A DNA stretch of 64,000 bases from Acidimicrobiia bacterium (GTDB lineage: Bacteria; Actinomycetota; Acidimicrobiia; IMCC26256; PALSA-555), in assembly GCA_009694295.1 (NCBI GenBank), contig SHVJ01000001.1, positions 7,286 through 71,285 of the forward strand. The letters run 5' to 3'. Below are positions 291 to 60,012 of the stretch, piece after piece (positions within the stretch are counted from its first letter, which is position 1; every line of letters begins with the position of its first letter). Below the pieces are notes generated by a model that had not been told where the DNA came from, did not search any database, and worked only from the letters and a program-made list of their open reading frames with translations. The translations under genes were made by a program, and so were the position numbers.

Positions 291-335
291 CGATCTGAAG
301 AGAGGCGATCTGAAGAGAGGCGATCTGAAGAGAGG
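291..335. repeat. Perfect 15-bp x3 tandem repeat CGATCTGAAGAGAGG
   Basis: Units at 291-305, 306-320 and 321-335 are identical and head to tail. They lie in a divergent intergenic region and are immediately followed by TAGGTT (336-341). Confidence 0.95.
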
Positions 336-341
336 TAGGTT
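336..341 (+). promoter_or_regulatory. -10-like TANNNT box (TAGGTT), 6 nt before GTG 348; putative leaderless promoter
   Basis: TAGGTT-CCGGGC-GTG. No separate Shine-Dalgarno run lies between the box and the start. Confidence 0.45.
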
Positions 342-347
342 CCGGGC

Positions 348-776
348 GTGGCTGACTCAACCGCCGAGGCCAACCGCGCGCTGATCCTCCAGTTCTGGGA
401 CGACCTCTATCGCCACGAGTTCGAAGCATGCGGCGCGTACTTCACCGACGACGGCGTCTACACCGACGTGCCCGTCGGCGAGGTCGGTGCAACCGGCCCT
501 GCCGAGGTTGCGGCGCGGCTGCGCCTCGGGCTCGAGCCGATCGACCGCAACGTGCACCACCTCCGGAGCCTCGTGTGCGACGGCGACGTCGTGATGACCG
601 AGCACGTCGAGGAGTGGTTCTGGAAGACGGGCGAGCATGTGGCGCTGCCATTCGTGTCGGTGATGGAGCTGCGCGACGGCTTGATCGCTCGCTGGTGGGA
701 CTACTTCAATCTGCCCACGCTGCTCGACGCCGCACCGCAGTGGTGGCTCGAGCACATCGCGAAGGGTTACAAGTAG
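348..776 (+). CDS. SnoaL/NTF2-fold protein, limonene-1,2-epoxide hydrolase-like
   Basis: 142-aa ORF. ALILQFWDDLY and LIARWWDYFNL segments are typical of the LEH/SnoaL-like family. Confidence 0.8.
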   Translation: MADSTAEANRALILQFWDDLYRHEFEACGAYFTDDGVYTDVPVGEVGATGPAEVAARLRLGLEPIDRNVHHLRSLVCDGDVVMTEHVEEWFWKTGEHVALPFVSVMELRDGLIARWWDYFNLPTLLDAAPQWWLEHIAKGYK

Positions 777-779
777 CGC

Positions 780-2291
780 TCAGCCGATCACCGGGGTACC
801 GGGCATCGGCAGATTGGCCGCGGCGGCCTTGAACTGCTCGGCGTCGATCTCCATCCAGAACCCAGCCTCGACCGCGGCGTCGGCCGACGCATTGAAAGCC
901 TCTGCGTAGTCGGCGTGCGCGGGATAGAGCTCGACAAGCTTCGCGTCGTCGAACGGGAGGGTACGACCGAACAGGACGCAAAGCCTCTCGCCCTTGCCAG
1001 GCTGCCCGGTCAATGTTGCGATCGGGACATCAACCTGGGGTGTACGGATGCCGCCCTTGGCGTTGCCGTGCTCATCGCGTGCGATCTCGTCGTCGCTGGT
1101 GATCGCCATTCGGGGCGAGCGCGGAGGCGCCGTGCCATCGCGTACCCAACGTTCGAGCTGGAACACCGCGGCATTCAGTACGGCGAACATCGGTCCGGCA
1201 TTGATCGGCGCGGTGCAGCCGAGTGGACCGCCGGTGATCGCCCGGACATCGAGGAGTTGAGCTTCGACCGTGCCGTCGTCGGCATCGCCGAAGCCAAGTG
1301 GTGCCGTATACGCGTCGGCATGCGACGTACCCGCCACTTCCCACAGCCGGATCTGCTTGGTGTCGCGCTGACGAGCCGCGAGGTACCCAAGCAGGGTGAG
1401 GTCGGTCTCCGTCTCGAACATCAACACGGGCACATCGACATCAGCGCGAATCAACGCCCCCTCGGGCATCCCATCGCGGGTGCCCGACCCCTTCGACTCA
1501 GTGAACCCCGCTGCGCTCCCGCCGCGGCTGTACACGAGGAATCCGTCGAACACGTGCGTGCGCGGGTGCACGGCGTTGATGTACGTGACCATGCGAAACG
1601 CCGACTGAGACTCACCCATCGCGATGACACGCTCCACCACGAGATCGCCCAGCGGCTTCGGCTCATCGCCAGTGCGGACGGCGACACCGGTCTGGGAGAA
1701 GATGTCATACGAGAACGCGTCACCGGGATGGTCGAGGTCCGCGTACCGCGCCGCGTCGGCCACCTTCAGCCCACCCGAAGGGATGGCCGCCGTCGCGCTC
1801 TCGCCGTCGCCTTGAATGCCAGCGGATTGGGCCGACACGCCGACCCAGGCCGCGCCGCTCCGGATGATCTGGGTGTGCGACGCCGTCCAAGCTGCGCCGG
1901 TATCGAAGCCGGCCGTCACATTCAGCCATTCGACGAACACCGTGCCGCTGAAATCGTCCGCCGACGCTGGGCGATACACGACGATTCGCGTCGCGAATGG
2001 TGCCGTGTCGGCTGGCTTCACCTTCCACTTGCCGTTGCGCGCGAGCTTGCCCACCGCGTCGAACGAAGTTGCCGTGCCGTCGAGGAAGAACTCCTCGCCG
2101 ACGTAGCCGGCGGCCGGGTTGAGGCTGGCCGCCACGAGGATCGGCTTCCCGCCGCCCCCGGTGATCGGTCCCGCGGCCGTGGGCTCGGGGACGGCCTCGT
2201 TCTTTCCGATGGGCGCCGACGCGCCGACGGGCACAGCCAGCGCTCCAAGCGTGAGAACGACCGTGGCAGCAAAGACTCGCTGACGCTTCAT
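780..2291 (-). CDS. Secreted protein of unknown function (alpha/beta-hydrolase-like family)
   Basis: 527-aa ORF. The internal ATG at 2291 gives a signal peptide MKRQRVFAATVVLTLGALAVPVGASAP. The long mature domain reads as real protein. The family call is from memory only. Confidence 0.65.
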   Translation of the reverse strand: MKRQRVFAATVVLTLGALAVPVGASAPIGKNEAVPEPTAAGPITGGGGKPILVAASLNPAAGYVGEEFFLDGTATSFDAVGKLARNGKWKVKPADTAPFATRIVVYRPASADDFSGTVFVEWLNVTAGFDTGAAWTASHTQIIRSGAAWVGVSAQSAGIQGDGESATAAIPSGGLKVADAARYADLDHPGDAFSYDIFSQTGVAVRTGDEPKPLGDLVVERVIAMGESQSAFRMVTYINAVHPRTHVFDGFLVYSRGGSAAGFTESKGSGTRDGMPEGALIRADVDVPVLMFETETDLTLLGYLAARQRDTKQIRLWEVAGTSHADAYTAPLGFGDADDGTVEAQLLDVRAITGGPLGCTAPINAGPMFAVLNAAVFQLERWVRDGTAPPRSPRMAITSDDEIARDEHGNAKGGIRTPQVDVPIATLTGQPGKGERLCVLFGRTLPFDDAKLVELYPAHADYAEAFNASADAAVEAGFWMEIDAEQFKAAAANLPMPGTPVIG

Positions 2292-2320
2292 GGCCGGAGA
2301 GTGTGCCAGCCTCCATGTCT

Positions 2321-2362
2321 TGGCGTCAGAAAACCCACCGCCACGGTGGTCTTCTGACGCCA
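2321..2362. promoter_or_regulatory. 42-nt near-perfect palindrome / hairpin in a divergent intergenic region
   Basis: TGGCGTCAGAA (2321-2331) pairs with TTCTGACGCCA (2352-2362). Inner stem CCACCG (2335-2340) pairs with CGGTGG (2344-2349). Confidence 0.6.
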
Positions 2363-2405
2363 AGACCCGGTCTGGAGGCCCGGGACCCGCTCACCCCACC
2401 CCCGG

Positions 2406-2411
2406 TAGCCT
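2406..2411 (+). promoter_or_regulatory. -10-like TANNNT box (TAGCCT), 8 nt before GTG 2420
   Basis: TAGCCT-CATTGGTC-GTG. The downstream reading begins a signal peptide VFRHFRNICLVALAIGSLVGSIAVPGGAAP. Confidence 0.4.
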
Positions 2412-2419
2412 CATTGGTC

Positions 2420-3470
2420 GTGTTTCGTCACTTTCGCAACATCTGTCTCGTCGCGCTCGCGATCGGATCGCTGGTCGGCTCGATCGCGGTGCCGGGGGGT
2501 GCCGCCCCGATCGACGACAAGCGGGCCCAGGCCGTCGCCCTCCAGGTCCAGATCACCGAGACCAACCAGACGCTCAGCGCACTCGGCGAGGAGTTCAACG
2601 GGGCGCAGCTCCGCCTCGACGAAGCCGAAGCCGCGCTCGCCGCGCTGCAAGTCCAGATCGACGCCACAAAGGCCGAGATCGCCCGCATCAAGGGCGTGCT
2701 CGCCGAGCGGGCCGCGGCGGTCTACAAGCGAGCCGCGTCGGGCGGCTCGACCGACGCGCTCGACATCGGCAACGCGCAAGAGTTCGCGAGTCGCGAGCAC
2801 TACGCATCAGCACAGGCCGACGACGACAACCGCCTCATCGACAACCTCAGACATCGCGAAGGATCAGCTTCGCGAGCAGCGCGGCACCGCGCGGACGATG
2901 CGCGACGCCGCGGCCACCGAGCACCAACGGCTCGCCGAGATGAAGACATCACTCGAAGCACTGTCGGCGCAGCAACAGCAATTGCTCGCACAGGTGCAAG
3001 GCGACGTCAAGCGGCTCATCCAAGAAGACCTCGAACGCAAGCAAGCCGAAGCAATCGCGATGGCGCACGGACGGTACGGCAACAACGTCGAGGCGTATCC
3101 CAACCTGCCGCCGCCTGGACCGTCCACCGCAATCGCGATCGCCTACGCATACCAGCAGATCGGCAAGCCGTACCTGTACGCCGGCATCGGCATCGATCGC
3201 TTCGACTGCTCAGGCCTCGTGATGATGGCCTTCCGATCGGCAGGCGTGTACCTCCCGCACTACTCCGGCGCGCAGTACCACATGCTCCCGCACTTACCGC
3301 TCGACGCGATGCAGCGCGGCGATCTTCTCTTCTGGGGTGGCGGTGGCAGCAGCCACGTCGCGATCCCTCTCGGCGACGGACAGATCATCGAGTCAGGCGG
3401 TACCGGTCACAACACGCACGTCGGACCGATCTGGGGTCATCCCTCAGGAGCAGCCCGCGTCACCCAGTAG
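2420..3470 (+). pseudogene. NlpC/P60 peptidoglycan endopeptidase with N-terminal coiled coil (RipA-like); reading frame broken near 2849-2852
   Basis: The signal peptide and coiled coil (QVQITETNQTLSALGEEFNGAQLRLDEAEAALAALQVQIDATKAEIARIKG ... NRLIDNL) are in the frame of ORF 2303..3490. The continuation (DIAKDQLREQRGTA ... YQQIGKPYLYAGIGIDRFDCSGLVMMAFRSAGVYLPHYSGAQY ... HVAI) is in the +1 frame of ORF 2499..3470. The switch lies inside AACCTCAGACATCGCG. Confidence 0.7.
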
Positions 3471-3502
3471 CGCAATCCGCTCGCACGTAGCACGATGTCC
3501 CC

Positions 3503-5262: not shown

Positions 5263-5267
5263 CGTTC

Positions 5268-6648: not shown

Positions 6649-6682
6649 CGATCGCCTGCAACCCGCGATCGCCTACAACCCG
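6649..6682. repeat. 17-bp x2 tandem repeat spanning the ccdA stop codon
   Basis: Minus-strand units are CGGGTTGTAGGCGATCG (6682-6666, contains the ccdA TAG) and CGGGTTGCAGGCGATCG (6665-6649, CAG at the same position). Confidence 0.9.
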
Positions 6683-7374
6683 CCAATCGAAGGCGTGAGC
6701 TTGGCGAGATACGACGTCACGTGCTTGTACAGCCCCGTCGTCAGCAGGATGCCGAGCACGACGAGCAGCACACCGGCAACCCGTTCGACCTTCGGGCCGA
6801 TGCGGCGCAATCGTTCGGCGAGCCAGGGTGACGACGCCAGGCCGAGCGCAGCCAGCAGGAACGGCACGCCGATCCCGAGTGCGTAGGCCAGGAGCAACAC
6901 GGCGCCGCGCCCGGCTTCACCTCCGCGTGCGGCGACGGTGAGCGCCGCGGCAAGCAGCGGACCGACGCACGGACTCCACGCCGCGCCGAAGGCAATTCCA
7001 ACTACGAACGGACGAAGCGGTCCGCCGAAGGTCGGCGCGTGCATCAGCCGTCGCTCGCGACTCAGCGGACCGCGAATCACACCCAGCAGCGCCAAACCCA
7101 TCACCATCACGAGCACGCCGCCGATGCGTTGCACCCAGTCCTGTACCTCGTGCAGCGAGGATCCGACCTGACCGGCCGCCGCGCCGAGCGCGGCGAAGAC
7201 CACCGCGAACCCGAGCACAAAGATGACCGTGGCCGGCACCGCGCGCGCCGCGTCGCGCTCCTGCGCGGCCTCGCCCGCAATGATCCCCAGGTACGCGGGC
7301 AACAGCGGCACGATGCAGGGCGCGAGGAACGACGCAACACCGGCACCGAACAGCACGACAAGCTCGCGCGCCAT
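6673..7374 (-). CDS. ccdA: Cytochrome c biogenesis / thiol-disulfide transporter CcdA (DsbD-core family)
   Basis: 233 aa, polytopic. Conserved Cys segments FLAPCIVPLLPAYLG and WSPCVGP. Confidence 0.85.
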   Translation of the reverse strand: MARELVVLFGAGVASFLAPCIVPLLPAYLGIIAGEAAQERDAARAVPATVIFVLGFAVVFAALGAAAGQVGSSLHEVQDWVQRIGGVLVMVMGLALLGVIRGPLSRERRLMHAPTFGGPLRPFVVGIAFGAAWSPCVGPLLAAALTVAARGGEAGRGAVLLLAYALGIGVPFLLAALGLASSPWLAERLRRIGPKVERVAGVLLVVLGILLTTGLYKHVTSYLAKLTPSIGGL

Positions 7375-7383: not shown

Positions 7384-8493
7384 TCAGGTCCCGAAGGTAA
7401 ACGCGAACGCTTCGAGGCCAGCACCGCGCGCCACGAGCCGAATCGTGTGCTCCTCCACCGACGGCGACAGCACCAGGCGGTAGAGGTCGTACGCCGCGAC
7501 TCGGATGAAGGTGTTGCCGTCGGCGTCGACCATGGTCTGCGAGGTGCGCTCCGACTCGTTGAGCGGACGGCCGTCGATCTCGATCAGCAGGTCGACGGGC
7601 ATGCCTGGTTGCGGACCGAGCACGAGGTTGACCTCACCCGCTCGGTAGCGCAACACGATCGCGGCACCCGCGGCATCTGATGTGACCTGCTCGTCGCCCG
7701 CGTTCCACGTTCCCTCGAGGCGCGCCTGGTCGATCGCCGGCGCGTCCGAACCCACGGGGTACGTCACGACACCGGGTTGGGCGGCGCTCCCGCGCAGGGT
7801 ACCGAGATACGTCTCGGGCGTGATGGTCGCAACCTGAGCCGTCTGTGTCGAGTCGTCATCGATCGGTTCGGCGGACGGCGCCGACTTCGGGATGCCCAAG
7901 AGCTTGCGGATCACGGACTCGGTCTCTGCGTAGGACCCTTCGCCGAAGTGCAGGTACCGCACGCGACCGCGGCGATCGGTGATGTATTTGGCCGGCCAGT
8001 ACTGGTTCGAGAACTGGTTCCAGATCGCCATGTTGTCGTCGAGCGCGACGGGGTAGTTCACGTGGAGGCGAGCCACCGCGTCGCGCACATTGTCGTGGTC
8101 CTTCTCGAACTCGAACTCCGGTGAGTGGATGCCCACGATGACCAGGCCGTCGTCGGCGTAGCGGTCGTACCAGGCTTCCAAGTGCGGCAGCGTGCGCACG
8201 CAGTTCACGCATGAGTACGTCCAGAAGTCGTACACGACCACCTTGTCGCGCAGATCAGCCTTCGAGAGTGGATCGCTGTTGATCCACCCTTCGGCCGCGT
8301 CGAGACTCGGCAGCTTCGGGCCGACCGGCAAGTTGGAGACGTCGGCGCGCGTGGCGAGGTCGCGGGGGTCGGCGGAGCTGGCGATGAACACCGCAGCCGC
8401 GGCTGCCACGGTGAGCGCGACGGCCACGAGCAAGTAGACGCGCCGCGAGCGCGGCGGCTCGGTGTGCGCCGGAACCCCACTCGCTTCGTCCAC
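7384..8493 (-). CDS. Membrane-anchored thioredoxin-fold protein with DipZ-like C-terminal domain
   Basis: TM anchor, CxxC in WTYSCVNCVRTLPH, and a beta-rich C-terminal domain as in the C-terminal part of mycobacterial DipZ. GTG 8493 is preceded by GGAGGA. Lies 9 nt upstream of ccdA. Confidence 0.8.
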   Translation of the reverse strand: MDEASGVPAHTEPPRSRRVYLLVAVALTVAAAAAVFIASSADPRDLATRADVSNLPVGPKLPSLDAAEGWINSDPLSKADLRDKVVVYDFWTYSCVNCVRTLPHLEAWYDRYADDGLVIVGIHSPEFEFEKDHDNVRDAVARLHVNYPVALDDNMAIWNQFSNQYWPAKYITDRRGRVRYLHFGEGSYAETESVIRKLLGIPKSAPSAEPIDDDSTQTAQVATITPETYLGTLRGSAAQPGVVTYPVGSDAPAIDQARLEGTWNAGDEQVTSDAAGAAIVLRYRAGEVNLVLGPQPGMPVDLLIEIDGRPLNESERTSQTMVDADGNTFIRVAAYDLYRLVLSPSVEEHTIRLVARGAGLEAFAFTFGT

Positions 8494-8566
8494 GCGCTTC
8501 CTCCGTCTCCTGCGACCCAATCATCCCAGGGCTGATCTTCCAAGCACTGGCACTGGTCTACGGAGC

Positions 8567-8594
8567 AGACGGCCGGTGAGACGGCCGGTGAGAC
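8567..8594. repeat. 12-bp tandem repeat AGACGGCCGGTG x2 plus partial AGAC
   Basis: Units at 8567-8578 and 8579-8590, partial unit at 8591-8594. One nt separates it from TACGGT (8596-8601). CACTGG x2 also occurs at 8545-8556. Confidence 0.9.
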
Positions 8595-8595: not shown

Positions 8596-8601
8596 TACGG
8601 T
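8596..8601 (+). promoter_or_regulatory. -10-like TANNNT box (TACGGT), 7 nt before ATG 8609
   Basis: TACGGT-TGGGCAC-ATG. Confidence 0.45.
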
Positions 8602-8608: not shown

Positions 8609-9394
8609 ATGGCTGCGGTCGAAGAGGTGCCGGTCGAAGAGGTGGTGCAACGCCTCGATACCGACGGGTACGCCATCATCGAAGGGCTCATCCCCCACGA
8701 CGAGGCGATCGCCATCGGGGTGGAGCTACGGCGGCTGCTCGATGGCGTGCCGGAGGGCCGCAACTTCTTCGAGGGGTTCCACACCCGCCGCCTCTATGCC
8801 ATCTACGCCAAGACCCGCATCCTCGACCCGCTCACGCTGCATCCACTCGTACTCGGCGCACTCGAGCGCGTGCTCGGTCCGCACTTCCAGCTGAGTGGGC
8901 CGACGGGGATTGAGATCGGTCCCGGCGAGGTGCAGCAGATCCTGCATCGCGACGAAGACATCTACCCGGTGCCCCGTCCGCACCCGCAACTCGTCACCAA
9001 CGTGATGTGGGCATTCGACGACTTCACCGAAGCAAACGGCGCGACTCGCGTCATTCCCGCGAGCCAGGACTCCGTGGAGCAACCTCCCGATGACGCGCCG
9101 ATGGTGTTCGCGGAGATGCCGGCTGGTTCCGCGATGATCTACGTGGGATCCGTCTGGCACGGTGGCGGCGCGAACGTCACCGATCGCACGCGGCTCGGCG
9201 CGGCGATCGAATACGCGGCGGGCTGGCTCCGCCAACAGGAGAACCACCTGGTAACGGTGTCGCCCGAGCTGATGCGCACGTTGCCGAAGCGACTACGCGA
9301 GCTCCTCGGGTACAACATCTACCCGCCGTTCGTCGGCTACGCGGACGGGCGCCATCCGGACAAGTATCCGTTCACTCAACGGCCTCCGGCCTGA
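8609..9394 (+). CDS. Phytanoyl-CoA dioxygenase (PhyH) family Fe(II)/2-oxoglutarate oxygenase
   Basis: GYAIIEGLI, HRDEDIYP (HxD), NGATRVIPASQ, WHGGGAN. The N-terminal extension of ORF 8462 is Arg/Pro junk. Confidence 0.8.
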   Translation: MAAVEEVPVEEVVQRLDTDGYAIIEGLIPHDEAIAIGVELRRLLDGVPEGRNFFEGFHTRRLYAIYAKTRILDPLTLHPLVLGALERVLGPHFQLSGPTGIEIGPGEVQQILHRDEDIYPVPRPHPQLVTNVMWAFDDFTEANGATRVIPASQDSVEQPPDDAPMVFAEMPAGSAMIYVGSVWHGGGANVTDRTRLGAAIEYAAGWLRQQENHLVTVSPELMRTLPKRLRELLGYNIYPPFVGYADGRHPDKYPFTQRPPA

Positions 9395-9402: not shown

Positions 9403-9441
9403 ATTCGTCACAAAGGTCAAGAGCTAGATCAAGAGCAGTTG

Positions 9442-23899: not shown

Positions 23900-24477
23900 G
23901 CGAACGTGATCTTGAACGTGACTCGCTCTGCATCGCCCGCGGTCAGCTCCGTGATCGAAAGCAAGCAGTCGTGCGTCGCGTCACACACTCGGTTCGTGGC
24001 GCCGAACGGCCCCGCGTTGACCGCTCGATCGGCGACAACCTTTCCCTTCTTGTTGGCTTTCACCGCTGTGGTCTTGACGGTGTCGCAGTCGACGCCGGCC
24101 AGCTCTCCCTCGTCGAGCCCGTTGTCGGGATCGTCGGGGTCGACGCACTGGACGATGCCAAGCGCGATCTTCTTCGTGAATCCCTTCGCAACAATGTGCA
24201 CGACGTCACCGTTCACCAGTCCGGTTGCCGGCGACGCTTTGCCCTTGCACTTCGGATTCAGCTCACCGCACTCGGCTTCCCCGGGCGCGTAGACCTTGTC
24301 TTCGGCCGGCTCCTTGCCCGTGCCGCCACCTCCGCCGGCCGCGGCGCCGCCAATCGATGTCGCCGTCACGAGGCCGAGCATGAGCAGCGCGACGAACAGG
24401 TACGCCGAGCGCCTCCCCCGGTGTGTGGTCCCCCGGTGTGTGGTCCCCCGGTGTGTGGTCATGCGTTGAGTGGTCAT
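23896..24477 (-). CDS. Secreted neocarzinostatin-family (Ig-like apoprotein fold) protein with TTHRG x3 N-terminal repeat
   Basis: The C-terminal ~115 aa align by eye to neocarzinostatin-type apoproteins: SPATGLVNGDVVHIVAKGF ... GIVQC ... DC ... VCDATHDCLLS ... VTFKITFA, with 4 Cys. TM/signal segment AYLFVALLMLGLVTA. ATG 24477 is preceded by GGGGGAAG and overlaps the oppF-like stop as ATGA. Confidence 0.7.
   Translation of the reverse strand: MTTQRMTTHRGTTHRGTTHRGRRSAYLFVALLMLGLVTATSIGGAAAGGGGGTGKEPAEDKVYAPGEAECGELNPKCKGKASPATGLVNGDVVHIVAKGFTKKIALGIVQCVDPDDPDNGLDEGELAGVDCDTVKTTAVKANKKGKVVADRAVNAGPFGATNRVCDATHDCLLSITELTAGDAERVTFKITFA
24415..24459. repeat. Perfect 15-bp x3 tandem repeat (CCCCCGGTGTGTGGT on plus strand) encoding TTHRG x3
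   Basis: Units at 24415-24429, 24430-24444 and 24445-24459. They are in-frame in the signal-peptide n-region of the 23896..24477 gene. Confidence 0.95.
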
Positions 24478-32585: not shown

Positions 32586-34213
32586 CCTGGCCGACGCGCG
32601 TCACGCCGGCCGACCTCGCGGCGCGCTACGTGGAGCGCGGCCACTGGGACGACCGCACGCTGGGCCAGCTGCTCGACGGCTACCTGCGCGCGGAGCCCGA
32701 TCTCGAGTTCCGCATCTGGTCCGACACCCGCCCGTACCGCGGCACATACCGGTCCGTGCACGAGCTCTCGGCACGCGTTGCAGGCGGGCTTGCGGCACGC
32801 GGGGTCGGCCCGGGCGACGTCGTCGCATTCCAGATGCCGAACTGGGTGGAAGCCGCAGCCACGTTCTGGGGTTTGAGCCTGCTCGGCGCGGTGATCGTGC
32901 CGATCGTGCACTTCTACGGACCGAAGGAGGTGGCGTTCATCCTCCAGGAGTCGGGTGCCCGTGTTCACCTGAGCGCAGACCAGTTCGGGCACGCGAACTT
33001 CCTCGACGCACTCGACGCAGTGCTCCCCCAGACGCCCGACGTCGAAGAGGTGTACGTGGCCGGCGACAGCGCGGGGTCGCACACCCCGTTCGCCACGTTG
33101 CTCGACGCCGATCCGCTTCCGGCGCCGATCCAGGTCGACCCGGCGGCGCCCGCGTTCATTGCCTACACGTCGGGCACCACCGCCAGCCCAAAGGGAGTGG
33201 TGCACTCGCACCGCAGTGCCGGTGCGGAGGTGCGCGACAAGATCGACTTCCGGGTGCTGCCGAAAGGCGATCCACCGAACCTCGTCGGCGCGCCGATCAG
33301 TCACGCCATCGGCATGCTCGGCGCGTTGCTCGCACCGCTCGCGTGGCGCGAGCCCGTACACGTCATCGACGTGTGGGACCCATCCAAGGTCTTGGCTGCG
33401 ATGGCGGAGGCTCACCTCTGCTCCGGGAGCGGGTCACCGTTCTTCCTCGCGAGCCTGCTCGATTGCCCCGACTTCACCGACGAGCACCTGAAGCTCATCC
33501 GTCACGTCGCGATCGGCGGCGCGCCGGTGCCGGCGGCGTTTGCCGAGCGCGTCACCGAGCTCGGCATCTCCATCGTGCGCGGCTACGGCTCCACGGAGCA
33601 CCCGTCGACCACGAGCACCTTGCACGAAGTGGATTCACTCGAAGCGCGCATCTACAGCGACGGCCGTCCGCAGCCGGGCATCGAGGTGCGCATCGCTGAC
33701 GACGACGGGCGGCCGGTGTCACCGGGCGAGTGGGGCGAGATCCAGTCGCGCGGCCCCGACCTGTGCACGGGGTACACCGATCCGGCGCTCACCGCCGACG
33801 CCTTCGACGCCGACGGCTGGTACGCCACGGGCGACATCGGCTTCCTCGACGACGACGGCTATCTGCACGTGACCGACAGGAAGAAGGACATCATCATCCG
33901 CGGCGGCGAGAAGGTCAGCGCCAGCGAGGTGGAGGAACTGCTTCACCGCATGGGCGGCGTCGCCGAATGTGCGGTGGTTCCCGCACCAGACGCGCGCCTC
34001 GGTGAGCACGGCTGCGCGTACTTCCGCATGCTCGAAGGCCACGACGCACCCGACCTCGACAAGCTGCGCGCCCACCTCGACGAAGCCGGCCTGGCGCGTC
34101 AGAAGTGGCCAGAAGAAGTGCGAGTCGTCGACGACTTCCCAAGAACCCCAAGCGGCAAGATCAAGAAGTACGAGCTGCGCAACCAGCTGCGGGACGAAAC
34201 GGCGAGGAAATAG
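32582..34213 (+). CDS. AMP-dependent acyl-CoA synthetase/ligase
   Basis: IAYTSGTTASPKGVVHSH, YGSTE, TGDIGFLDDDGYLHVTDRKKDIIIRGGEKV. The GTG start overlaps the upstream stop as GTGA. Confidence 0.9.
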   Translation: MTWPTRVTPADLAARYVERGHWDDRTLGQLLDGYLRAEPDLEFRIWSDTRPYRGTYRSVHELSARVAGGLAARGVGPGDVVAFQMPNWVEAAATFWGLSLLGAVIVPIVHFYGPKEVAFILQESGARVHLSADQFGHANFLDALDAVLPQTPDVEEVYVAGDSAGSHTPFATLLDADPLPAPIQVDPAAPAFIAYTSGTTASPKGVVHSHRSAGAEVRDKIDFRVLPKGDPPNLVGAPISHAIGMLGALLAPLAWREPVHVIDVWDPSKVLAAMAEAHLCSGSGSPFFLASLLDCPDFTDEHLKLIRHVAIGGAPVPAAFAERVTELGISIVRGYGSTEHPSTTSTLHEVDSLEARIYSDGRPQPGIEVRIADDDGRPVSPGEWGEIQSRGPDLCTGYTDPALTADAFDADGWYATGDIGFLDDDGYLHVTDRKKDIIIRGGEKVSASEVEELLHRMGGVAECAVVPAPDARLGEHGCAYFRMLEGHDAPDLDKLRAHLDEAGLARQKWPEEVRVVDDFPRTPSGKIKKYELRNQLRDETARK

Positions 34214-34708
34214 CTAGTCGCCCTTGCCGCACTTCCAGCCGCTCAGCGAGGCCCGCAATCCCGCGGCGAGGTCTTGCCGCTCCTTGGCGGTGAGCTTGGC
34301 GTCGGCGTGCAGGCCGAACCACGTGTAGTAGCCGGGCGGCATCGAGCGACCAACGGTCTCGGCCGCGTCGCCGCCACCCTCGCCGCCACCCTCGCCGCCC
34401 CCGGTGCTCTTCGTGCAGTCGGAGAAGTTGAGCGTGTCGCGGCCCTCGTCCACGTGGTTCTTGATCCACCACGACAGCGGCGCGATGTCCTCGAACCAGG
34501 GGGTCTCGGTCTCGTTGCTATGGCAGTCGAAGCAAGCGACCTTCGCGAGGGCGCGCGTACGTGGGCTGTCCCACGTCGGCTCTTGCTTGACCGGCGGGTT
34601 GTCCACCCGGATCGGGATGAGCTGGAGCAGCCCGAAGGCCAACGCCAGGACGGCGATCACCGCGAGGACGCCACGACGGGTGAAGCGAGGTTTCGACCAC
34701 GTGACCAT
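34214..34708 (-). CDS. Membrane-anchored haem-binding-domain protein (CxxCH)
   Basis: TM anchor VLAVIAVLALAFGLL, then CFDCHSNETETPWFEDIAPLSWWIKNHV (CxxCH) and an internal GGGEGGGEGGG. Confidence 0.7.
   Translation of the reverse strand: MVTWSKPRFTRRGVLAVIAVLALAFGLLQLIPIRVDNPPVKQEPTWDSPRTRALAKVACFDCHSNETETPWFEDIAPLSWWIKNHVDEGRDTLNFSDCTKSTGGGEGGGEGGGDAAETVGRSMPPGYYTWFGLHADAKLTAKERQDLAAGLRASLSGWKCGKGD
34369..34402. repeat. 12-bp tandem repeat (CGCCGCCACCCT x2 plus partial) encoding GGGEGGGEGGG
   Basis: Units at 34369-34380 and 34381-34392, degenerate partial unit at 34393-34402. In-frame in the 34214..34708 gene. Confidence 0.85.
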
Positions 34709-34719
34709 GGCTGCATCAT

Positions 34720-34739
34720 GTCGGTGCACGGGCACCGAC
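34720..34739. promoter_or_regulatory. Palindrome GTCGGTGC-ACGG-GCACCGAC
   Basis: Perfect 8-bp arms, 12-31 nt upstream of ATG 34708, in the divergent region shared with the SDR gene at 34842. Confidence 0.35.
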
Positions 34740-38431: not shown

Positions 38432-38504
38432 CAGCACTTGCCTAACTCGCACTTGCCCGGCTCACATTTGCCCGCTCACACTTGCCCGGCTCACACCTGG
38501 AGGA
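38432..38504. repeat. About five degenerate tandem copies of a 14-15-bp unit (consensus CTCACACTTGCCCGG) in the mscL leader
   Basis: CAGCACTTGCCTAA (38432-38445), CTCGCACTTGCCCGG (38446-38460), CTCACATTTGCCCG (38461-38474), CTCACACTTGCCCGG (38475-38489), CTCACACCTGGAGGA (38490-38504). The last unit contains the GGAGGA Shine-Dalgarno. Confidence 0.85.
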
Positions 38505-39857: not shown

Positions 39858-39908
39858 GCCTTCTGGGTCGATGGGCCTTCTGGGTCGATGGGCCTTCTAG
39901 GTCGACGG
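39858..39908. repeat. 17-bp x3 tandem repeat spanning the PBP stop codon
   Basis: Plus-strand units are GCCTTCTGGGTCGATGG (39858-39874 and 39875-39891, identical) and GCCTTCTAGGTCGACGG (39892-39908). On the minus strand the gene-proximal unit carries TAG where the two distal units carry CAG. Confidence 0.9.
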
Positions 39909-41963
39909 GGTGGTCGAGGGCACGGTGACGGGCGGCACTGTCACCTCCGGGATGACGATGACCGGCCCGGCGGTCGTGGGCGTGGTCGGCGGGGCGACGC
40001 CCGGCACTCCCCGGCCCTTCTCAGAGACGTAGGCCCCCTGGCGGTCGCAGAACGGACCCGGGTCGGGGAACTCGGCGAAGGGGAGCGCAAAGAGTGCGGT
40101 CTCCATGAACGCCCTGAAGATGCGCGCCGGGATCTGGCCGCCGAACCCGGCACCGGGCACCTGCGCGAGTGCGTTGCCGTGCCAGATGAAGACCGCGAGC
40201 TGCGGGGTGAAACCGAGGAAGTTCGCGTCGGCCTTGTTGTCGGTCGTGCCGGTCTTGCCCGCGACCGGTCGGCTGCTGTTCAATCGCGCCGCCGTACCAG
40301 TGCCGCTCGTGATCACGCCGCGCAACATGTCGGCTTCGCACGCGGCGGCCTCTTCACTGATCGCGCGCGTCCCTTCCACGTCCTTCGCGGCGTCGAAGAC
40401 CACCCGTCCGTCGGCGGCCACGATCTTGCTCACGAACAACGGCGGGTGGTGCACGCCACCGTTGGCGATCGTGGACGCCACCGTCGCCATCTCCAACGGT
40501 GTCGTCTCGATCGTCCCTAGCGTCAACGTGAGGATCGGCTTCAACGTCTCTTGGGTGATCCCCATCTTCTGGGCCGTCTCCATAACGTTGAGCAGTCCGG
40601 TTGCGAGCTCCAACCGGGCGAACGCACAGTTGACGGAGTGCGCTGTTGCCGAGCGCAAGGTCATACGACCGGTCCCACGTTCGGCGTTCTGGGTTTTGCC
40701 GAGCGCACCGAACTCACACGGCGACGATCCGCTGATCGTGTCCTTCGGCGAGAACCCGTGTTCGATCGCCGAGGCCAGTGTGATCACCTTCCACGTGGAG
40801 CCCGCCTGGCGTCCCGGGTACGTCGTGGCGATGTTGTACTGACTCTGCACGAACGCCGGACCAGCGATCATCGCCTTCACTTCACCGGTGTTGGGATCCA
40901 TGGCGATCATCGCGCCGGTGAATCCCGGCTTCTCCGGCAGAATCTCGTCCATCGCTTCTTGCGCGAACTTCTGCTTCACGGGGTCGAGCGTGGCCGTGAT
41001 CTGCAACCCACCGGTCAGCACACGAGTTCGCCGGATCGGTTCCGTCTTGCCGAGCACCGCATACACCGGGTCGTTGATCAGCCGATCTTGCACCTCTTCG
41101 GCCCACGCATTGCGCGGTCGGAGCTCGGCATCGGGCTTGATCGACGGCAGTGGCTCCTGCTCGGCGACGACGGCCTCCGCGCGCGTGATGTAGTCCTGGC
41201 TGACCATTTGGCTCAACGCGATCGTTCGGCGGGCACGCGCGCGCTCGGGACTTGTGAACGGGTTATCGCCCTCGGGGTTGGCGATGAGACCCGCGAGCAG
41301 CGCGGCTTGCGCGATGGTCACGTCGGCGAGCTGCGGAGGATACGGACCGAAGGCGCCCTCCTGGAGGAAGAAACGCTCCACCGCGGCCTTCACTCCGTAC
41401 GACCCTTGTCCGAAGTACACGGTGTTCAGGTACTGCTCGAGGATCTTGCGCTTCGAGATCTGATCGGTGAGCCGGACCGCGAGGAGGACTTCGCGCACCT
41501 TGCGGTTGAGGTCGCGCTCTGACGTGAGGATGCGGTTCTTCACGAGCTGTTGGGTGATCGTCGACCCCCCTTCCTCGATCTCACCCGACGTCACGTTGCG
41601 TGCGAACGCTCGCGCCACCGCATTGAAGTCGACGCCCTCATTGGTCCAGAACGTCTGGTCTTCGACCGCAACGACCGCTTGTTGGAGGATCTTGGGAACG
41701 GCGCTGAGGCGAACCTCTTGTCGGTTCAGCGACCCGAGCACCGCGATCACGTTCCCCTTCGAGTCGTACACCGTCGAGCGCTGCTTGAGCTCGCGCAACG
41801 TGATGCTGCTGTCGAACTCCTGGGCGCGGAACAGGATCCCGGTGCTCATCACGAGAGCGGCGATGAACATGCCGACGACGACACCACCAACGATGACCGT
41901 CGTGAGGAACGCCCGAACGGGTGACTGCTCAGCCATCTCGGCGAGTCGCCGGTAAGGCTGCAC
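39897..41963 (-). CDS. Class A penicillin-binding protein (GT51 transglycosylase plus transpeptidase)
   Basis: EDQTFWTNEGVD, GGSTITQQLVKN, STWK (SxxK), KTGTTD. N-terminal TM and Pro/Thr/Val-rich C-terminus. GTG start at 41963. Confidence 0.9.
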   Translation of the reverse strand: MQPYRRLAEMAEQSPVRAFLTTVIVGGVVVGMFIAALVMSTGILFRAQEFDSSITLRELKQRSTVYDSKGNVIAVLGSLNRQEVRLSAVPKILQQAVVAVEDQTFWTNEGVDFNAVARAFARNVTSGEIEEGGSTITQQLVKNRILTSERDLNRKVREVLLAVRLTDQISKRKILEQYLNTVYFGQGSYGVKAAVERFFLQEGAFGPYPPQLADVTIAQAALLAGLIANPEGDNPFTSPERARARRTIALSQMVSQDYITRAEAVVAEQEPLPSIKPDAELRPRNAWAEEVQDRLINDPVYAVLGKTEPIRRTRVLTGGLQITATLDPVKQKFAQEAMDEILPEKPGFTGAMIAMDPNTGEVKAMIAGPAFVQSQYNIATTYPGRQAGSTWKVITLASAIEHGFSPKDTISGSSPCEFGALGKTQNAERGTGRMTLRSATAHSVNCAFARLELATGLLNVMETAQKMGITQETLKPILTLTLGTIETTPLEMATVASTIANGGVHHPPLFVSKIVAADGRVVFDAAKDVEGTRAISEEAAACEADMLRGVITSGTGTAARLNSSRPVAGKTGTTDNKADANFLGFTPQLAVFIWHGNALAQVPGAGFGGQIPARIFRAFMETALFALPFAEFPDPGPFCDRQGAYVSEKGRGVPGVAPPTTPTTAGPVIVIPEVTVPPVTVPSTTPST

Positions 41964-42031: not shown

Positions 42032-42059
42032 CAGGTTCTGAGAGCCAGGTTCTGACAGG
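42032..42059. repeat. 14-bp x2 direct repeat CAGGTTCTGAGAGC / CAGGTTCTGACAGG
   Basis: The 10-bp core CAGGTTCTGA is repeated exactly, in a locally lower-GC intergenic region upstream of the aldo/keto reductase gene. Confidence 0.8.
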
Positions 42060-49294: not shown

Positions 49295-50439
49295 ATGCTG
49301 GGCGTTCGTTCACGTTCGATGATCGCACTCGCCACCATCACGATGAGCGGCACGATGAGCGGCACGATGAGCGGCACGATGAGCGGACACAGCAGTCCTC
49401 GGCGACGACAGCAAAGGCTGCGCCCAAGACCGCTTGCCCATCGACCCAGCCGTCAGCAGGAACCATCGTCCCTGGAGACACGGTGGGACTGGCCGTATCT
49501 GCTGGTCCAACGTTCAAGCCGACCGAAGAGGTCGATCACGACTTTGACCTCGTCGAGGCGACGGGCGCGCAATGGGTGCGCTTCGACATCGCGTGGTACC
49601 AGGTCCAGCCGACCGGTCCAAACGACTGGAAGTGGGACGCCGTCGACACCGCTGTCGATTCCGCGAACGATCATGGTCTCAACATGTTGTTCACCGTGGG
49701 GTACACCCCAGCGTGGGCAAGGGCATCCAGCGCAAGGAATCAGCACTTCCCGCCGACCCGCGCGCACCTTCCCGACTTCGCGACGTTCGTCGGTGCGCTC
49801 GCGGAACGGTACGCATCACAGGGTGTTCGGACATACGAGATCTGGAACGAACCGAATCTTCCTCAGTTCTGGAAGCCAACGCCCAAACCCGGCGCCTACA
49901 CCAGGTTGTTGAAGGTCGCTCACGGCGTAATCTCAGATGTGGATCCAAGCCTGATGGTGGTAAGTGGTGGCTTGGGACCGACCGAAGATCTCGACGAAAC
50001 CACCGCGACAGGGAGTCGCTACGGCGAGCGAGCGTTTCTCGAAAGGATGTACCGCGCGGGCGCCAAGCCGTACTTCGATGCCTTTGGACACCACCCGTAT
50101 GCCAATCCCAGCCCGCTCGACTCCAACCTTGCCTTCTGCCACACCGCGGCACTCCACGACGTGATGGTCGAGCACAGCGACGGAACGACACCCATCTGGG
50201 CTACCGAAGCCGGTGCGTATACGGGGGACCCAAACGCCGTCCCGGAACCCGATCAGGCCGAGAACATCCGCGAGATGGTGACCCTGTGGCAGCAATGGCC
50301 CTTCGCAACCGGTCCGTTCTTCGTGTACACGCTGACCGACCCGCCGTCTCCGGAATGGGCCTATGGGCTTCTGCGCGCGGACTACACCCCCAAGCTCGCG
50401 TACCAATGGCTGAGGGACACGATCGCCGACTCGCCTTGA
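49295..50439 (+). pseudogene. Clan GH-A (GH5-like) glycoside hydrolase; signal peptide and catalytic domain are in different frames (break at 49386/49387)
   Basis: From ATG 49295 the frame reads MLGVRSRSMIALATITMSGTMSGTMSGTMSG. The catalytic domain (TQQSSATTAKAAPK ... GAQWVRFDIAWYQVQP ... YEIWNEPN ...) is in the frame of ORF 49213..50439. One extra C after the last repeat unit would join them as ...MSGTQQSS... Confidence 0.55.
49339..49386. repeat. Perfect 12-bp x4 tandem repeat CACGATGAGCGG
   Basis: Units at 49339-49350, 49351-49362, 49363-49374 and 49375-49386. They encode (MSGT)n in the ATG 49295 frame and (HDER)n in the ORF 49213 frame. Confidence 0.95.
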
Positions 50440-50463: not shown

Positions 50464-50508
50464 AGGGCTGGTTCACGTGGGGCTGGTTCACGTAGGGCTC
50501 GGGCACGT
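50464..50508. repeat. 15-bp x3 tandem repeat (AGGGCTGGTTCACGT / GGGGCTGGTTCACGT / AGGGCTCGGGCACGT)
   Basis: Units at 50464-50478, 50479-50493 and 50494-50508. Each ends in CACGT, and a further CACGTG lies at 50447-50452. Three nt separate the repeat from TACCCT. Confidence 0.9.
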
Positions 50509-50511: not shown

Positions 50512-50517
50512 TACCCT
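50512..50517 (+). promoter_or_regulatory. -10-like TANNNT box (TACCCT), 6 nt before ATG 50524
   Basis: TACCCT-CTGCCG-ATG. Confidence 0.45.
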
Positions 50518-55356: not shown

Positions 55357-55375
55357 GGCAGTCCCTACTCGCCGG

Positions 55376-55381: not shown

Positions 55382-55387
55382 GAGTTC

Positions 55388-57037: not shown

Positions 57038-58542
57038 CGCCAATTTCTCTGATGGGGGCCCCGACTCCGCCGATCGCGTTCGGGGGCGATGCCGCCGACG
57101 TGACCGCGCGACTCAATGCCGCGTTCGTCGACGTCGACGCGGCGCTGCTGGAGCGTCTGCGGGGCGCGTGCGGAGAGGTCACGGTCGAGGCCGCAGCGCT
57201 CGCGGAAGCGAGCCGAGACTGGTGGCCGCTGGCGATGGTGTGGGCGCTGGATGGCCAAGTCGCCGCACGGGCCGCGGCAGTCGCGCGCCCGACATCGGTC
57301 GCCGAGATCGCCGCGGTGTTGCAGATCGCCAACGAGTCGCGCGTGCCCGTGACGCCGGCCGCCGGGAGGTCTGGCGTGTGTGGCGCGAGCGTGCCGATCC
57401 ACGGCGGCATCGTGCTGGATCTGTGCGCGTTGTCCGGCATCGTCGATGTCGACCACGAATCGATGGTGCTCAACGTGCGTGCGGGAACGTTCGGCACACC
57501 GCTCGAAGACGAGCTGCGTTCGTCGTATGGCGTCACGGTGGGGCACTGGCCCCAGTCGATGGACCTCTCGACCGTGGGTGGCTGGCTCGCGTGCCGCGGC
57601 GCCGGTCAGCACTCCACCCGGTACGGAAAGATCGAAGACATCGTCGTCGGGCTCGACGTGGTGCTCGCCGACGGTCGCACGATCACCACCGGTGGTGCAC
57701 CACGGGCCGCGGTTGGCCCAGACCTCACCCAGCTGTTCGTCGGCAGCGAGGGAACGCTCGGCGTGATCACGAGCGCGCGACTCAAGCTCCACCCGACGCC
57801 GGTCGCCACCCGCACAGCTGCGTTCGGCTTCCCGTCGTTTCGCGAAGGCCTCGACGCGTGTCGACGACTCATGCATCGCGGCGCAACTCCCGCCGTCCTT
57901 CGCCTCTACGACGCGATCGAAGGTGAGCGGAACTTCCAGACCGGTGGGCACCACCCACTGCTCGTCCTCGACGAGGGCGATCCGACGATCATCGATGCGG
58001 TGATGGCGGTAGTCGCCGAAGAGTGTTCGTCCGCCGCACCGCTCGACGCCGCGCTCGTCGACCGCTGGCTCGAGCACCGCAACGACGTCAGCGCGGTCGA
58101 AGCGCTGATCTCGAAGGGGTACGTGGTCGACACCATGGAGATCGCGGCACGCTGGCGTGATCTCCCGGCGATCTACGATGCCGCGAGTTCGGCGATCGCC
58201 GGCGTCGAGCACACGCTCGTGGCGTCGGCACATCAGTCGCACTCCTACGGCGACGGCGCCTGCCTCTACTTCACGTTCGCCGGGCAGCCACCGGTCGATG
58301 GACGCGACGCTTACTACCGCGCCGCGTGGGATGCGGGCACGAACGCGGTCCTCGCCAATGGCGGCGCGCTCAGCCATCACCACGGGATCGGTCTCAACCG
58401 GGCCCGGTTCGTACGCGAAGCACTGGGCGACGCGTTCGACGTCCTCGTCGCCGCGAAGCACGCCCTCGACCCGAACGGCATCCTCAACCCCGGCAAGCTC
58501 GGACTCCCCAGCCCGTTCGGCCCATCCCCCGCCTGGCCATGA
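57034..58542 (+). CDS. FAD-linked oxidase (VAO/GlcD superfamily, alkyl-DHAP-synthase-like)
   Basis: VTPAAGRSGVCGASVP ... GTVGGWLACRGAGQHSTRYGKIEDIV ... HHHGIG. The GTG start overlaps the glpD stop as GTGA. Confidence 0.8.
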   Translation: MTPISLMGAPTPPIAFGGDAADVTARLNAAFVDVDAALLERLRGACGEVTVEAAALAEASRDWWPLAMVWALDGQVAARAAAVARPTSVAEIAAVLQIANESRVPVTPAAGRSGVCGASVPIHGGIVLDLCALSGIVDVDHESMVLNVRAGTFGTPLEDELRSSYGVTVGHWPQSMDLSTVGGWLACRGAGQHSTRYGKIEDIVVGLDVVLADGRTITTGGAPRAAVGPDLTQLFVGSEGTLGVITSARLKLHPTPVATRTAAFGFPSFREGLDACRRLMHRGATPAVLRLYDAIEGERNFQTGGHHPLLVLDEGDPTIIDAVMAVVAEECSSAAPLDAALVDRWLEHRNDVSAVEALISKGYVVDTMEIAARWRDLPAIYDAASSAIAGVEHTLVASAHQSHSYGDGACLYFTFAGQPPVDGRDAYYRAAWDAGTNAVLANGGALSHHHGIGLNRARFVREALGDAFDVLVAAKHALDPNGILNPGKLGLPSPFGPSPAWP

Positions 58543-59978
58543 TTCTGGTCGTCGACGTGGGGACGTCGTCGGTTCGTGGTGTGGTGGTCGACGGCGATGC
58601 GCGGATCGTGGCGGAGCACCGGCGGCCGTTGTTGCCGTCGTCGCCGGCCCCCGGACTCGTGGAGTTCGACGCCGCCGCGATGGCCGACGTCGTGCTCGAC
58701 GTGGCGCGCGCCGCTATCGATGAAGTCGGCGCCGTCGCCGCGGTGGGCGTCGCCAACCAGCGCGGCTCGGCCATCGTGTGGGATCGCGCCACCGGCGAGC
58801 CACTTGGACCGGGTATCGGGTGGCAGGACCTCCGCACCGTCGTGCGCTGCCTCGAGCTCCGCGGTTCCGATGTGCGCGTTGGGCCAAACCACTCGGCAAC
58901 CAAGTTCGAGACGCTGCTCGACGCGGCCGATCCCGACCGCAGTCGCGATCTGTGCGTGGGCACCGTCGACTCGTGGGTTGCGTGGACCCTTTCGGGCGGC
59001 GCGGTACACGTGACCGATGCGTCGAACGCGCTCATCACCGGCATGCGCACCGCGACCAACGAGACCTGGGACGCGTCCGTACTGGAGATCCTGCGCATCC
59101 CGGAACCTGCGTTGCCCACGGTCGTCGACTCGTCCGGCGAGGTGGGCGAGGCGAGTGCTTTGCCGGGCGCGCCGCCTATCACCGGATTGCTGGGCGATCA
59201 GCAAGCGTCGCTGCTCGGCCAGGGCTGCGTGCACCACTGCGACGCCAAGATCACCTTTGGTACCGGCGGAATGCTCGATGTCGTGCTCGGCCCCGATCGA
59301 CCGAAGTTCGATCTCCGCGGCGATGCTGGGACGTTCCCGATCGTGACGCGCCGCGTCGACGGCACCGACCTGTGGGGTCTCGAAGCGGTGATGCTGTCGG
59401 CCGGCACGAACATCGAGTGGCTGCGTGACGATCTCGGACTCGTGAGCTCGGCGGGGGAGACCGACGCGATCGCCGCAAGCTGCGCCGACACCGGCGACGT
59501 TTGGTACGTACCCGCACTCCTCGGTCTCGGCACGCCCCGCTGGGACTTCGGAGCCCGCGGCACATTGGTCGGTCTCACACGCGGCACCGAGCGCGCCCAC
59601 GTGGTGCGCGCCGTGCTCGAAGGAGTCGCGCATCGAGGCGTCGATCTGATCGAAGCGGCCGAAGCCGATAGTGGCTGTCGCATCGAGGTCGTGCGGGTCG
59701 ACGGCGGGATGACGGCCAACACCACATTTCTTCAAGCGCTAGCCGACGCGGCACAACGTCCGGTGGAAGTCGCCCCCGTCCGCGAGGCCACCGCACTCGG
59801 CGCCGCGTTCGCGGCCGGTCCCGCCGTCGGACGCTGGGTCGACGACGACGCCGTCGCAGCAACATGGAGCCCCGGCGCGCGCGTCGATCCCCAGCGGTCC
59901 CTCGACCGCGATCGTTGGCGCGACGCGGTCGATCGCGCGGAGCACTGGCTCCCCGACCTTTCGGCGATCGACTTCTAA
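58539..59978 (+). CDS. FGGY-family carbohydrate kinase, glycerol-kinase-like
   Basis: MILVVDVGTSSVRGVVVD ... VGVANQRGSAIVWDRATGEPLGPGIGWQDLRT. ATG 58539 overlaps the upstream stop as ATGA. Confidence 0.85.
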   Translation: MILVVDVGTSSVRGVVVDGDARIVAEHRRPLLPSSPAPGLVEFDAAAMADVVLDVARAAIDEVGAVAAVGVANQRGSAIVWDRATGEPLGPGIGWQDLRTVVRCLELRGSDVRVGPNHSATKFETLLDAADPDRSRDLCVGTVDSWVAWTLSGGAVHVTDASNALITGMRTATNETWDASVLEILRIPEPALPTVVDSSGEVGEASALPGAPPITGLLGDQQASLLGQGCVHHCDAKITFGTGGMLDVVLGPDRPKFDLRGDAGTFPIVTRRVDGTDLWGLEAVMLSAGTNIEWLRDDLGLVSSAGETDAIAASCADTGDVWYVPALLGLGTPRWDFGARGTLVGLTRGTERAHVVRAVLEGVAHRGVDLIEAAEADSGCRIEVVRVDGGMTANTTFLQALADAAQRPVEVAPVREATALGAAFAAGPAVGRWVDDDAVAATWSPGARVDPQRSLDRDRWRDAVDRAEHWLPDLSAIDF

Positions 59979-60012
59979 GTCACTCGGCTCCCGTCACTCG
60001 GCCGTCACCGGG
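59979..60012. repeat. Degenerate tandem repeat GTCACTCGGCTCCC / GTCACTCGGCC / GTCACCGGG
   Basis: It starts immediately after the kinase stop (TAA 59976-59978). Confidence 0.7.

Follow-up and report, generated by a model that had tools for sequence, protein, structure and literature searches.

Do short tandem repeats in an uncultured actinobacterium act as switches, or are they by-products of replication that selection happens to tolerate? The question is raised by a stretch of 64,000 nucleotides (nt) from an Acidimicrobiia bacterium (assembly GCA_009694295.1, contig SHVJ01000001.1, positions 7,286 to 71,285; hereafter, the window), in which an original prediction had listed 12 tandem arrays with units of 12-17 base pairs (bp), placed them at functionally sensitive positions and proposed that changes in their copy number tune promoters or secretion signals. 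In our analysis the arrays were largely ordinary, were moderately enriched in this lineage, and gave no sign of hypervariability or of function. We consider it likely that they are young, independent slippage duplications filtered by purifying selection, near-neutral and fixed, and not evolved switches. In five TRF (Tandem Repeats Finder) arrays the units were 100% identical, and at the sites compared, apart from 24414, relatives carried one copy or none, which indicates that the arrays are young. The arrays lay mostly outside genes, with the coding ones in tails and linkers, which is the pattern expected under a selection filter. One array that is degenerate in a sister species and perfect in the window (24414) showed a turnover consistent with slippage.

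In the mechanism that we favour, an initial duplication would arise through replication slippage or misalignment at short homologies, and further slippage between identical units would add the extra copies. Duplications would arise widely, with purifying selection removing those that disrupt genes, so that insertions of 12-17 bp would persist only at tolerated sites. Such sites would be intergenic spacers up to, but not into, a -10 or Shine-Dalgarno element, positions just past a stop codon and, within genes, N-terminal tails, signal-peptide n-regions and low-complexity linkers. The arrays would have formed within this uncultured Lake Baikal Acidimicrobiia lineage. Slippage combined with purifying selection is most likely the most economical account; we infer the mechanism and the near-neutrality, for arrays observed to be real, lineage-specific, biased towards tolerated sites and stable in copy number between assemblies.

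Array inventory and density

The window has a G+C content of 66.8% and is ~90-95% coding, with a non-coding share of 5-10%. Arrays were detected with TRF, using a score of at least 50 as the main cut-off, at least 80 for strong arrays and 30 for marginal ones, and the genes near them were placed by third-position GC, Pfam and gene calls on retrieved contigs. Nine of the 12 arrays listed in the original prediction were confirmed at a score of at least 50, each made of head-to-tail units of at least ~10 bp as in a variable-number tandem repeat (VNTR), whereas the other three were at chance level. The repeats at 9417, 42032 and 59979 were missing from the TRF output even at a score of 30. Read directly, these were single recurrences of exact 8-10 nt words, and by our estimate ~2 such repeated 10-mers are expected by chance per 64 kb of this composition. 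At 9417..9440, listed as an imperfect 12 bp x 2 repeat, only TCAAGAGC recurred in the sequence, at chance level; at 59979..60012, listed as ~12 bp x 3, GTCACTCGGC recurred once at a distance of 14 nt and was followed by a partial third copy, near chance level. The marginal repeat at 42032..42059 (14 bp x 2, 12/14 matches, read from sequence only) lay in the divergent spacer between the class A penicillin-binding protein (PBP) gene and an aldo/keto reductase gene. No strand is assigned to these three, nor to the arrays at 291 and 8567 described below. Beyond the earlier list, TRF found four further arrays (8616, 23379, 28987 and 34045). The units were unrelated among loci, as had been claimed: the best similarity between units of different loci fell within the shuffled null, and extra copies were absent from the rest of the window. 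A single dispersed element, of the type of the mycobacterial interspersed repetitive unit (MIRU) families, was ruled out since the units are unrelated and unique in the window; a known RNA element was also ruled out, with no Rfam match in the window.

How dense the arrays appear depends on the comparison. Dinucleotide or triplet-block shuffles of the window served as the null model: at a score of at least 50 there were 13 arrays in the window and 1.2 in the shuffles, and at a score of at least 80 there were 5 and ~0.01, respectively, an excess that all real genomes show. Related Acidimicrobiia loci (1.15 Mb for all arrays scoring at least 50) held 12.0 arrays per 64 kb, and GC-matched loci among them 7.9-8.6, compared with 13 in the window. 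A near-perfect class (period 10-20, at least 2.8 copies, score at least 80), defined post hoc with the data already seen, numbered 5 in the window against 0.68 per 64 kb in 1.78 Mb of comparators, where it was clumped: three in 11.6 kb of locus L083, two each in L005, L016 and L036, and none in most loci. Over the 30 kb common to the window and the sister species, seven arrays scored at least 50 and three at least 80 in the window, against three and none in the sister. The high density originally claimed was thus real relative to shuffles and for the near-perfect class, whereas the total was ordinary for related Acidimicrobiia. The window lies at the upper end of the density range of its clade and is not unique, as some relatives are locally equal or higher.

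The same sites in relatives

The nearest relatives of the class A PBP gene of the window were uncultured Acidimicrobiia metagenome-assembled genomes (MAGs). The closest other species in the comparison set, referred to here as the sister species, was represented by contig L019 (CAMDCC010000008.1, isolate MaH-09apr19-113), which was syntenic with the window over 19.0-49.2 kb at ~86% nucleotide identity. Its public record says Bifidobacterium breve, and the records of several related MAGs say Bifidobacteriaceae, evidently through taxonomic mislabelling. Exact-protein look-ups with the genes flanking the arrays returned only contigs matching the window or the sister (~86% nucleotide identity), and no closer strain. 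The same look-up for a 180-amino-acid (aa) gene gave no match, the gene caller having probably chosen a different start, and a JGI metagenome scan with the PBP gave no match above 74% amino-acid identity. With a concatenated PhyH and SnoaL protein query, the top 120 matches were all PhyH.

Judged by these alignments, the arrays are lineage-specific, with one copy or none in relatives and with 24414 as the exception. The array at 291..335 (15 bp x 3.0, perfect, CGATCTGAAGAGAGG; 100% matches in TRF) sits between a divergent SDR gene (minus strand, start at or below 248) and a SnoaL-like gene (GTG 348), and is followed directly by TAGGTT (336-341), 6 nt before the SnoaL-like start codon; relatives L169 and L170 have no array between these two genes. 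At 8567..8594, a perfect array (12 bp x 2.3, AGACGGCCGGTG; 100% in TRF) lies between a divergent thioredoxin-like gene (minus strand) and a PhyH gene (ATG 8609), with TACGGT (8596-8601) after it, 7 nt before the PhyH ATG. It duplicates part of a conserved block that is present once, as TACGGAGCnGACGGCC (GACGGCC), in relatives L167, L169 and L170, whose PhyH protein is 85-88% identical. The intergenic block TCTACGGAGCnGACGGCC upstream of PhyH (window 8555-8575) was conserved in the same three relatives and could act as an operator or promoter. Codons 3-12 of PhyH itself hold an array that was absent from the earlier list but found by TRF (8616..8644, plus strand, 15 bp x 1.9); in an N-terminal comparison the window has MAAVEEVPVEEVV and homologues have MATVERAVEPSVDEVV at this place. 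At the marginal 42032 repeat the sister had one copy and a shorter spacer.

The array at 24414..24475 (minus strand; TRF and translation) consists of 3.1 perfect 15-bp units (TRF 24414-24460) and one or two degenerate ones. It encodes MTTQR-MTTHRG-TTHRG-TTHRG, the signal-peptide n-region of a secreted neocarzinostatin-family protein (Pfam), whose start (ATG 24477) overlaps the stop of an upstream ABC ATPase gene. In the sister there are three degenerate 15-bp units, MTTDRQITHRQTNQRG, compared with three perfect and one or two degenerate units in the window, and more distant homologues have a short n-region; this is an old degenerate array that was later re-amplified. The original prediction is supported in so far as the arrays resemble the outcome of slippage or tandem duplication: over evolutionary time units have expanded or contracted, sites are single-copy or array-free in the closest relatives, and 24414 shows repeated turnover. 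An imperfect coding repeat at 34045 was kept in the sister, and is thus old and stable.

Two further sites differ from the sister by more than the array. The array at 38435..38496 (plus strand, 15 bp x 4.2, imperfect at 83%, CACTTGCCCGGCTCA; TRF, sequence and Pfam) occupies most of an 88-nt spacer leading from a 2-hydroxyacid dehydrogenase gene to mscL (ATG 38509). The segment 38421-38880, comprising mscL and this repeat-filled spacer, is absent from sister L019 as a clean insertion or deletion, and there the 2-hydroxyacid dehydrogenase gene and a 293-aa gene abut. The array at 34368..34399 (minus strand, 12 bp x 2.7, 100%; TRF and Pfam) encodes a low-complexity GGGE linker of a Haem_bd-domain protein; in place of the Haem_bd gene with this repeat (window 34214-34735), the sister has unrelated sequence of different length.

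The array at 39858..39909 (minus strand, 17 bp x 3.1; TRF and sequence) begins at the end of the class A PBP gene, in its last codons and its TAG stop (39897-39899), and continues into the spacer before the 293-aa gene. The PBP gene of the sister ends with TAG at the equivalent position, with no array after it. Several other lineages also had tandem arrays with unrelated units at or just past the 3' end of their PBP orthologue (L012:3873-3925, L037:2783-2896, L083:6468-6528, L085:7775-7828, L111:1245-1298 and L117:6145-6202). Their placement suggests that the Pro/Thr-rich C-terminal tail of the PBP is a recurrent hotspot for arrays, at the same position as 39858 in the window.

Positions relative to genes

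Nine of 16 arrays were wholly or mostly non-genic, although the window is almost entirely coding, and in this respect the claim that positions are not random was upheld. The description of these positions as functionally sensitive fits less well than tolerated, and comparators were biased likewise, with 87 of 150 arrays at non-coding or gene-boundary sites. Of the perfect coding arrays, 8616 lay in an N-terminal tail, 24414 in a signal-peptide n-region and 34368 in a Gly-rich linker, all with units that are multiples of 3, and 17-bp units were found only at or after stop codons. All five strong and clearly non-coding arrays (291, 8567, 38435, 49339 and 50464) had units of 12 or 15, multiples of three without a coding reason; among comparators, periods of 15, 18 and 12 dominated.

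Two arrays had correctly been said to span stop codons. Besides 39858, the array at 6649..6683 (minus strand, 17 bp x 2.1; TRF, sequence and Pfam) covers the TAG stop of a DsbD_TM gene (6673-6675, minus strand) and the spacer before an alpha/beta-hydrolase gene (ATG 6615). In both, the gene-proximal unit has TAG where the distal unit or units have CAG, which is the sole mismatch in the 6649 array and one of two mismatches in the 39858 array.

The -10 boxes proposed beside 291, 8567 and 50464 are plausible in so far as each array is followed after 0-3 nt by a TANNNT hexamer, with 6-7 nt from there to the start codon, although none matched sigma-70. At 50464..50508, an imperfect array (plus strand, 15 bp x 2.4-3; x2.4 in TRF, also sequence and Pfam) lies in the 84-nt spacer from a GH5 glycosidase gene to an AMP-binding enzyme gene (ATG 50524), and is followed by TACCCT (50512-50517), 6 nt before the AMP-binding gene ATG. 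A scan for sigma-70 consensus promoters and terminators at the arrays, which was E. coli-like and insensitive to -10-only actinobacterial promoters, found none. The TANNNT-to-start layout was kept in relatives for the SnoaL-like and PhyH genes (two of the three), with TAGCCT followed by 6 nt and ATG at the SnoaL-like gene of L169 and L170. Leaderless genes of actinobacteria are laid out with TANNNT 6-7 nt before the start codon, and the arrangement at the SnoaL-like, PhyH and AMP-binding genes plausibly fits leaderless transcripts, with transcription starts inferred from this spacing. The Shine-Dalgarno sequence placed inside an array at 38432 turned out to lie just downstream of the 38435 array instead (GGAGGA, 38499-38504).

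As for the two arrays assigned to signal-peptide n-regions, the assignment stood for 24414 and failed for 49339. The latter (49339..49386, plus strand, 12 bp x 4.0, perfect, CACGATGAGCGG; 100% in TRF) is found between the GH5 gene and an MpaB-like gene (minus strand, start 49261). It does not share the reading frame of the GH5 catalytic domain, and the ENA assembly calls the GH5 start further downstream (GTG 49483). The array was ruled out as part of a signal peptide, the GH5 domain being in another frame and homologues aligning only downstream of the array. It translates as HDER x4 when read with the GH5 domain and as TMSG x4 when read from ATG 49271. Frame 1 holds the GH5 catalytic domain and frame 2 the sole leader-like N-terminal peptide (ATG 49271), with the 12x4 array at the junction of the two, a junction sequence confirmed by contig L162; homologues bear a signal peptide or membrane anchor at this place. 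The GH5 gene may have a frameshifted leader, or may start downstream at GTG 49483.

Copy number, switching and rival explanations

Copy number was checked in consensus contigs and assemblies matching the window, from Logan SRR8561390 (a Lake Baikal winter metagenome from 1250 m depth; PMC7678222), Logan SRR31412735 and ENA ERZ1305449, and the sole exception to the match was one 1-nt indel, in contig L172. The ENA assembly equalled the window in gene spacing or protein length at 6649, 8567, 24414, 38435, 39858, 49339 and 50464, including 57 nt across the 6649 array, 221 nt across the 49339 array and 193 aa for the neocarzinostatin-family protein that holds the 24414 array. Contig L001 of SRR8561390 was identical to the window across 38435 and 39858, and in SRR31412735, L162 was identical across 50464 and L172 across 8567 and 8616. 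No copy-number difference was found for these eight arrays (seven in ERZ1305449, two in SRR8561390 and three in SRR31412735). The VNTR-like change proposed in the original prediction thus did not appear in any checkable assembly, all of these being consensus contigs possibly from one clonal population, with no strain at 95-99% ANI among them. The indel concerns window 8050-8053, with four G in the window and five in L172 of SRR31412735, and is the sole difference in 2746 nt; the extra G frameshifts the thioredoxin-like gene, with the call shortened to 215 aa, and reflects either a mistake in assembly or a true polymorphism of the homopolymer.

That the arrays are spurious duplications or carry wrong copy numbers through assembly or sequencing is exceedingly improbable. 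Logan contigs built at k=31 do break inside perfect arrays (L162 at 49357, L173 at ~24443 and L161 at 317), and such arrays are therefore hard for assemblers. Yet array sequences and spacing were reproduced by independent assemblies, and the breaks at 49357 and 24443 fall exactly at predicted repeated 31-mers. An assembly artefact was rejected because L001, L162 and L172 match the window save for the one 1-nt indel, which is outside the arrays. The contig ends at 49357 and ~24443, being explained by repeated 31-mers, were also rejected as copy-number alleles. At the left end of L161 (SRR8561390) at 317, the three-copy 15-mer array holds no repeated 31-mer, and no simple one-, two- or four-copy allele accounts for the break, which could reflect low coverage or an unresolved variant branch.

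The geometry of the arrays does not suit the contingency-locus logic that had been proposed. Arrays upstream of TANNNT would leave the proximal ~30 bp unchanged when a unit is gained or lost and would move only distal DNA, and a 12- or 15-bp unit does not shift the reading frame, so that no on/off switching follows. No array could switch a gene on or off by a change of one unit, since genic units are of 12 or 15 bp and the 17-bp arrays begin at stops. The Pfam-identified neighbours (SnoaL-like, PhyH, DsbD_TM, alpha/beta hydrolase, mscL, PBP, GH5 and AMP-binding genes) included no surface, host-interaction or restriction-modification genes, with only the neocarzinostatin-family protein secreted. 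On these geometric grounds a switch function is unlikely.

Contingency tracts in Haemophilus, Neisseria and Campylobacter have many copies of 1-8 nt units in surface or host-interaction genes, and act within reading frames, by frameshift, or between -35 and -10, by a change of spacing. Like classical contingency loci (cf. PMC3315296), the arrays of the window are repeat tracts, close to promoters or gene starts, in which slipped-strand mispairing could cause mutation; unlike them, they have two to four copies of 12-17 nt units, are in-frame or upstream of -10, and have housekeeping or metabolic neighbours. A closer likeness is to the promoter tandem repeats of Mycobacterium tuberculosis at dop, lpdA-glpD2 and cysG-efpA (Modlin et al., mSystems 2025, PMC12817950). 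These have units of 54-58 bp, described as repeated promoter elements, and their copy number differs from strain to strain and also within cultures. The leaderless lpdA gene has its repeat 12 bp upstream, and the copy number of this repeat changes expression and varies within cultures (PMC12817950). The functional idea therefore already has published precedent in GC-rich actinobacteria, and the statement that it is not usually described for them is outdated, MIRU-VNTR being classical and promoter repeats having been reported in M. tuberculosis (PMC12817950). As in M. tuberculosis, head-to-tail units here lie just upstream of (apparently) leaderless genes in a GC-rich actinobacterium, slippage is presumed in both, and window arrays end 12-15 nt before the start, compared with 12 bp at lpdA. 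The arrays at 291, 8567 and 50464 end 12-15 nt before a putative leaderless start, within the ~12-29 bp at which promoter repeats lie. Unlike promoter-sized units of 54-58 bp, those of the window are of 12-17 bp (12-15 bp at the promoter-like sites) and exclude the -10-like hexamer, and none was seen to vary.

The classical tandem-repeat loci of the M. tuberculosis complex are the MIRU-VNTR and exact tandem repeat (ETR) loci. MIRU-VNTR, as set out by Supply et al. in 2000, reportedly have units of ~40-100 bp in related dispersed families and are defined by strain variation. The window arrays resemble them in being tandem, mostly intergenic and actinobacterial, with copy change by slippage or recombination, and differ in that their units are of 12-17 bp, mutually unrelated, unique in the window and invariant in the data compared. 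Protein tails with low complexity or tandem repeats evolve by in-frame repeat expansion, and the peptide repeats TTHRG (24414), GGGE (34368) and VEEVP (8616), in tails or a linker, are of this kind, as are the arrays that comparators carry in the Pro/Thr-rich C-terminal tail of their PBP orthologue; in contrast, most strong arrays of the window are non-coding.

Against this background we think it unlikely that some of the arrays, above all those at 291, 8567, 50464, 38435 and 24414, follow a contingency or promoter-repeat logic, changing copy number often and so tuning transcription or secretion. Arrays placed right before TANNNT, 6/7 nt and a start codon do resemble the expression-altering lpdA repeat 12 bp upstream of its gene. 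Perfect units are good substrates for slippage, 24414 was re-amplified over evolutionary time, and the near-perfect class is ~7-fold above relatives. On the other hand, eight arrays showed no copy-number difference, units of 12-15 bp are too short for a promoter and leave the -10 outside, 12/15-bp units preserve frame, and neighbours such as the SnoaL-like, PhyH, acyl-CoA ligase-type, GH5 and mscL genes are not of the typical surface or host-interaction classes. The arrays are also absent from relatives, hence no conserved function is tied to the repeat state. In its most specific form, in which a free-living lineage of deep-lake Acidimicrobiia would employ 12-15 bp repeats at the -10 of leaderless genes and in an n-region as high-frequency copy-number rheostats for transcription and secretion, we find the proposal more doubtful still. 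We would also give only a slim chance to a lineage-specific mutational bias towards short tandem duplications, in this and some other lineages of the clade, through, for example, a slippage-prone replisome or weak insertion-loop repair; in that case the arrays would be signs of mutation pressure and not of function. Such a bias would agree with the clumping of the near-perfect class by lineage (five in the window, three in 11.6 kb of L083, none in most loci), with the fewer arrays of the sister over the same genes, and with the arrays of unrelated units that recur in several lineages where the PBP gene ends, but the case rests on 64 kb of this genome and on a class defined post hoc. It also overlaps with slippage followed by purifying selection and does not exclude it.

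Some observations weigh against near-neutral duplication as the whole account. In four or five cases the gap from array to start codon is 12-15 nt, with a -10-like hexamer or Shine-Dalgarno sequence directly next to the array, an arrangement that is tighter than uniform placement within spacers predicts and was not seen in comparators. Such an abutment was rejected as a clade-wide rule, comparator distances being flat, and either is unexplained or reflects the small sample. For the near-perfect 10-20 bp class, density exceeds the mean of related genomes ~7-fold and is also above that of the sister, and some lineage-specific factor of mutation rate or selection behind this excess is unexplained. 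The assemblies may sample one clonal population, with the consensus masking minority variants, and graded effects on expression may be conceivable here by the precedent of lpdA (PMC12817950).

If copy number did vary within populations and affect expression, the arrays would represent phase-variation-like regulation beyond pathogens, in oligotrophic freshwater actinobacteria, and as rheostats they would extend the promoter-repeat phase variation of M. tuberculosis to environmental non-pathogens and to much shorter units. On present evidence, slippage duplications filtered by purifying selection make the window a clear example of young tandem duplications that accumulate only at tolerated positions. 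The clade carries such arrays at lineage-dependent densities, and they could serve as strain markers for Baikal Acidimicrobiia.

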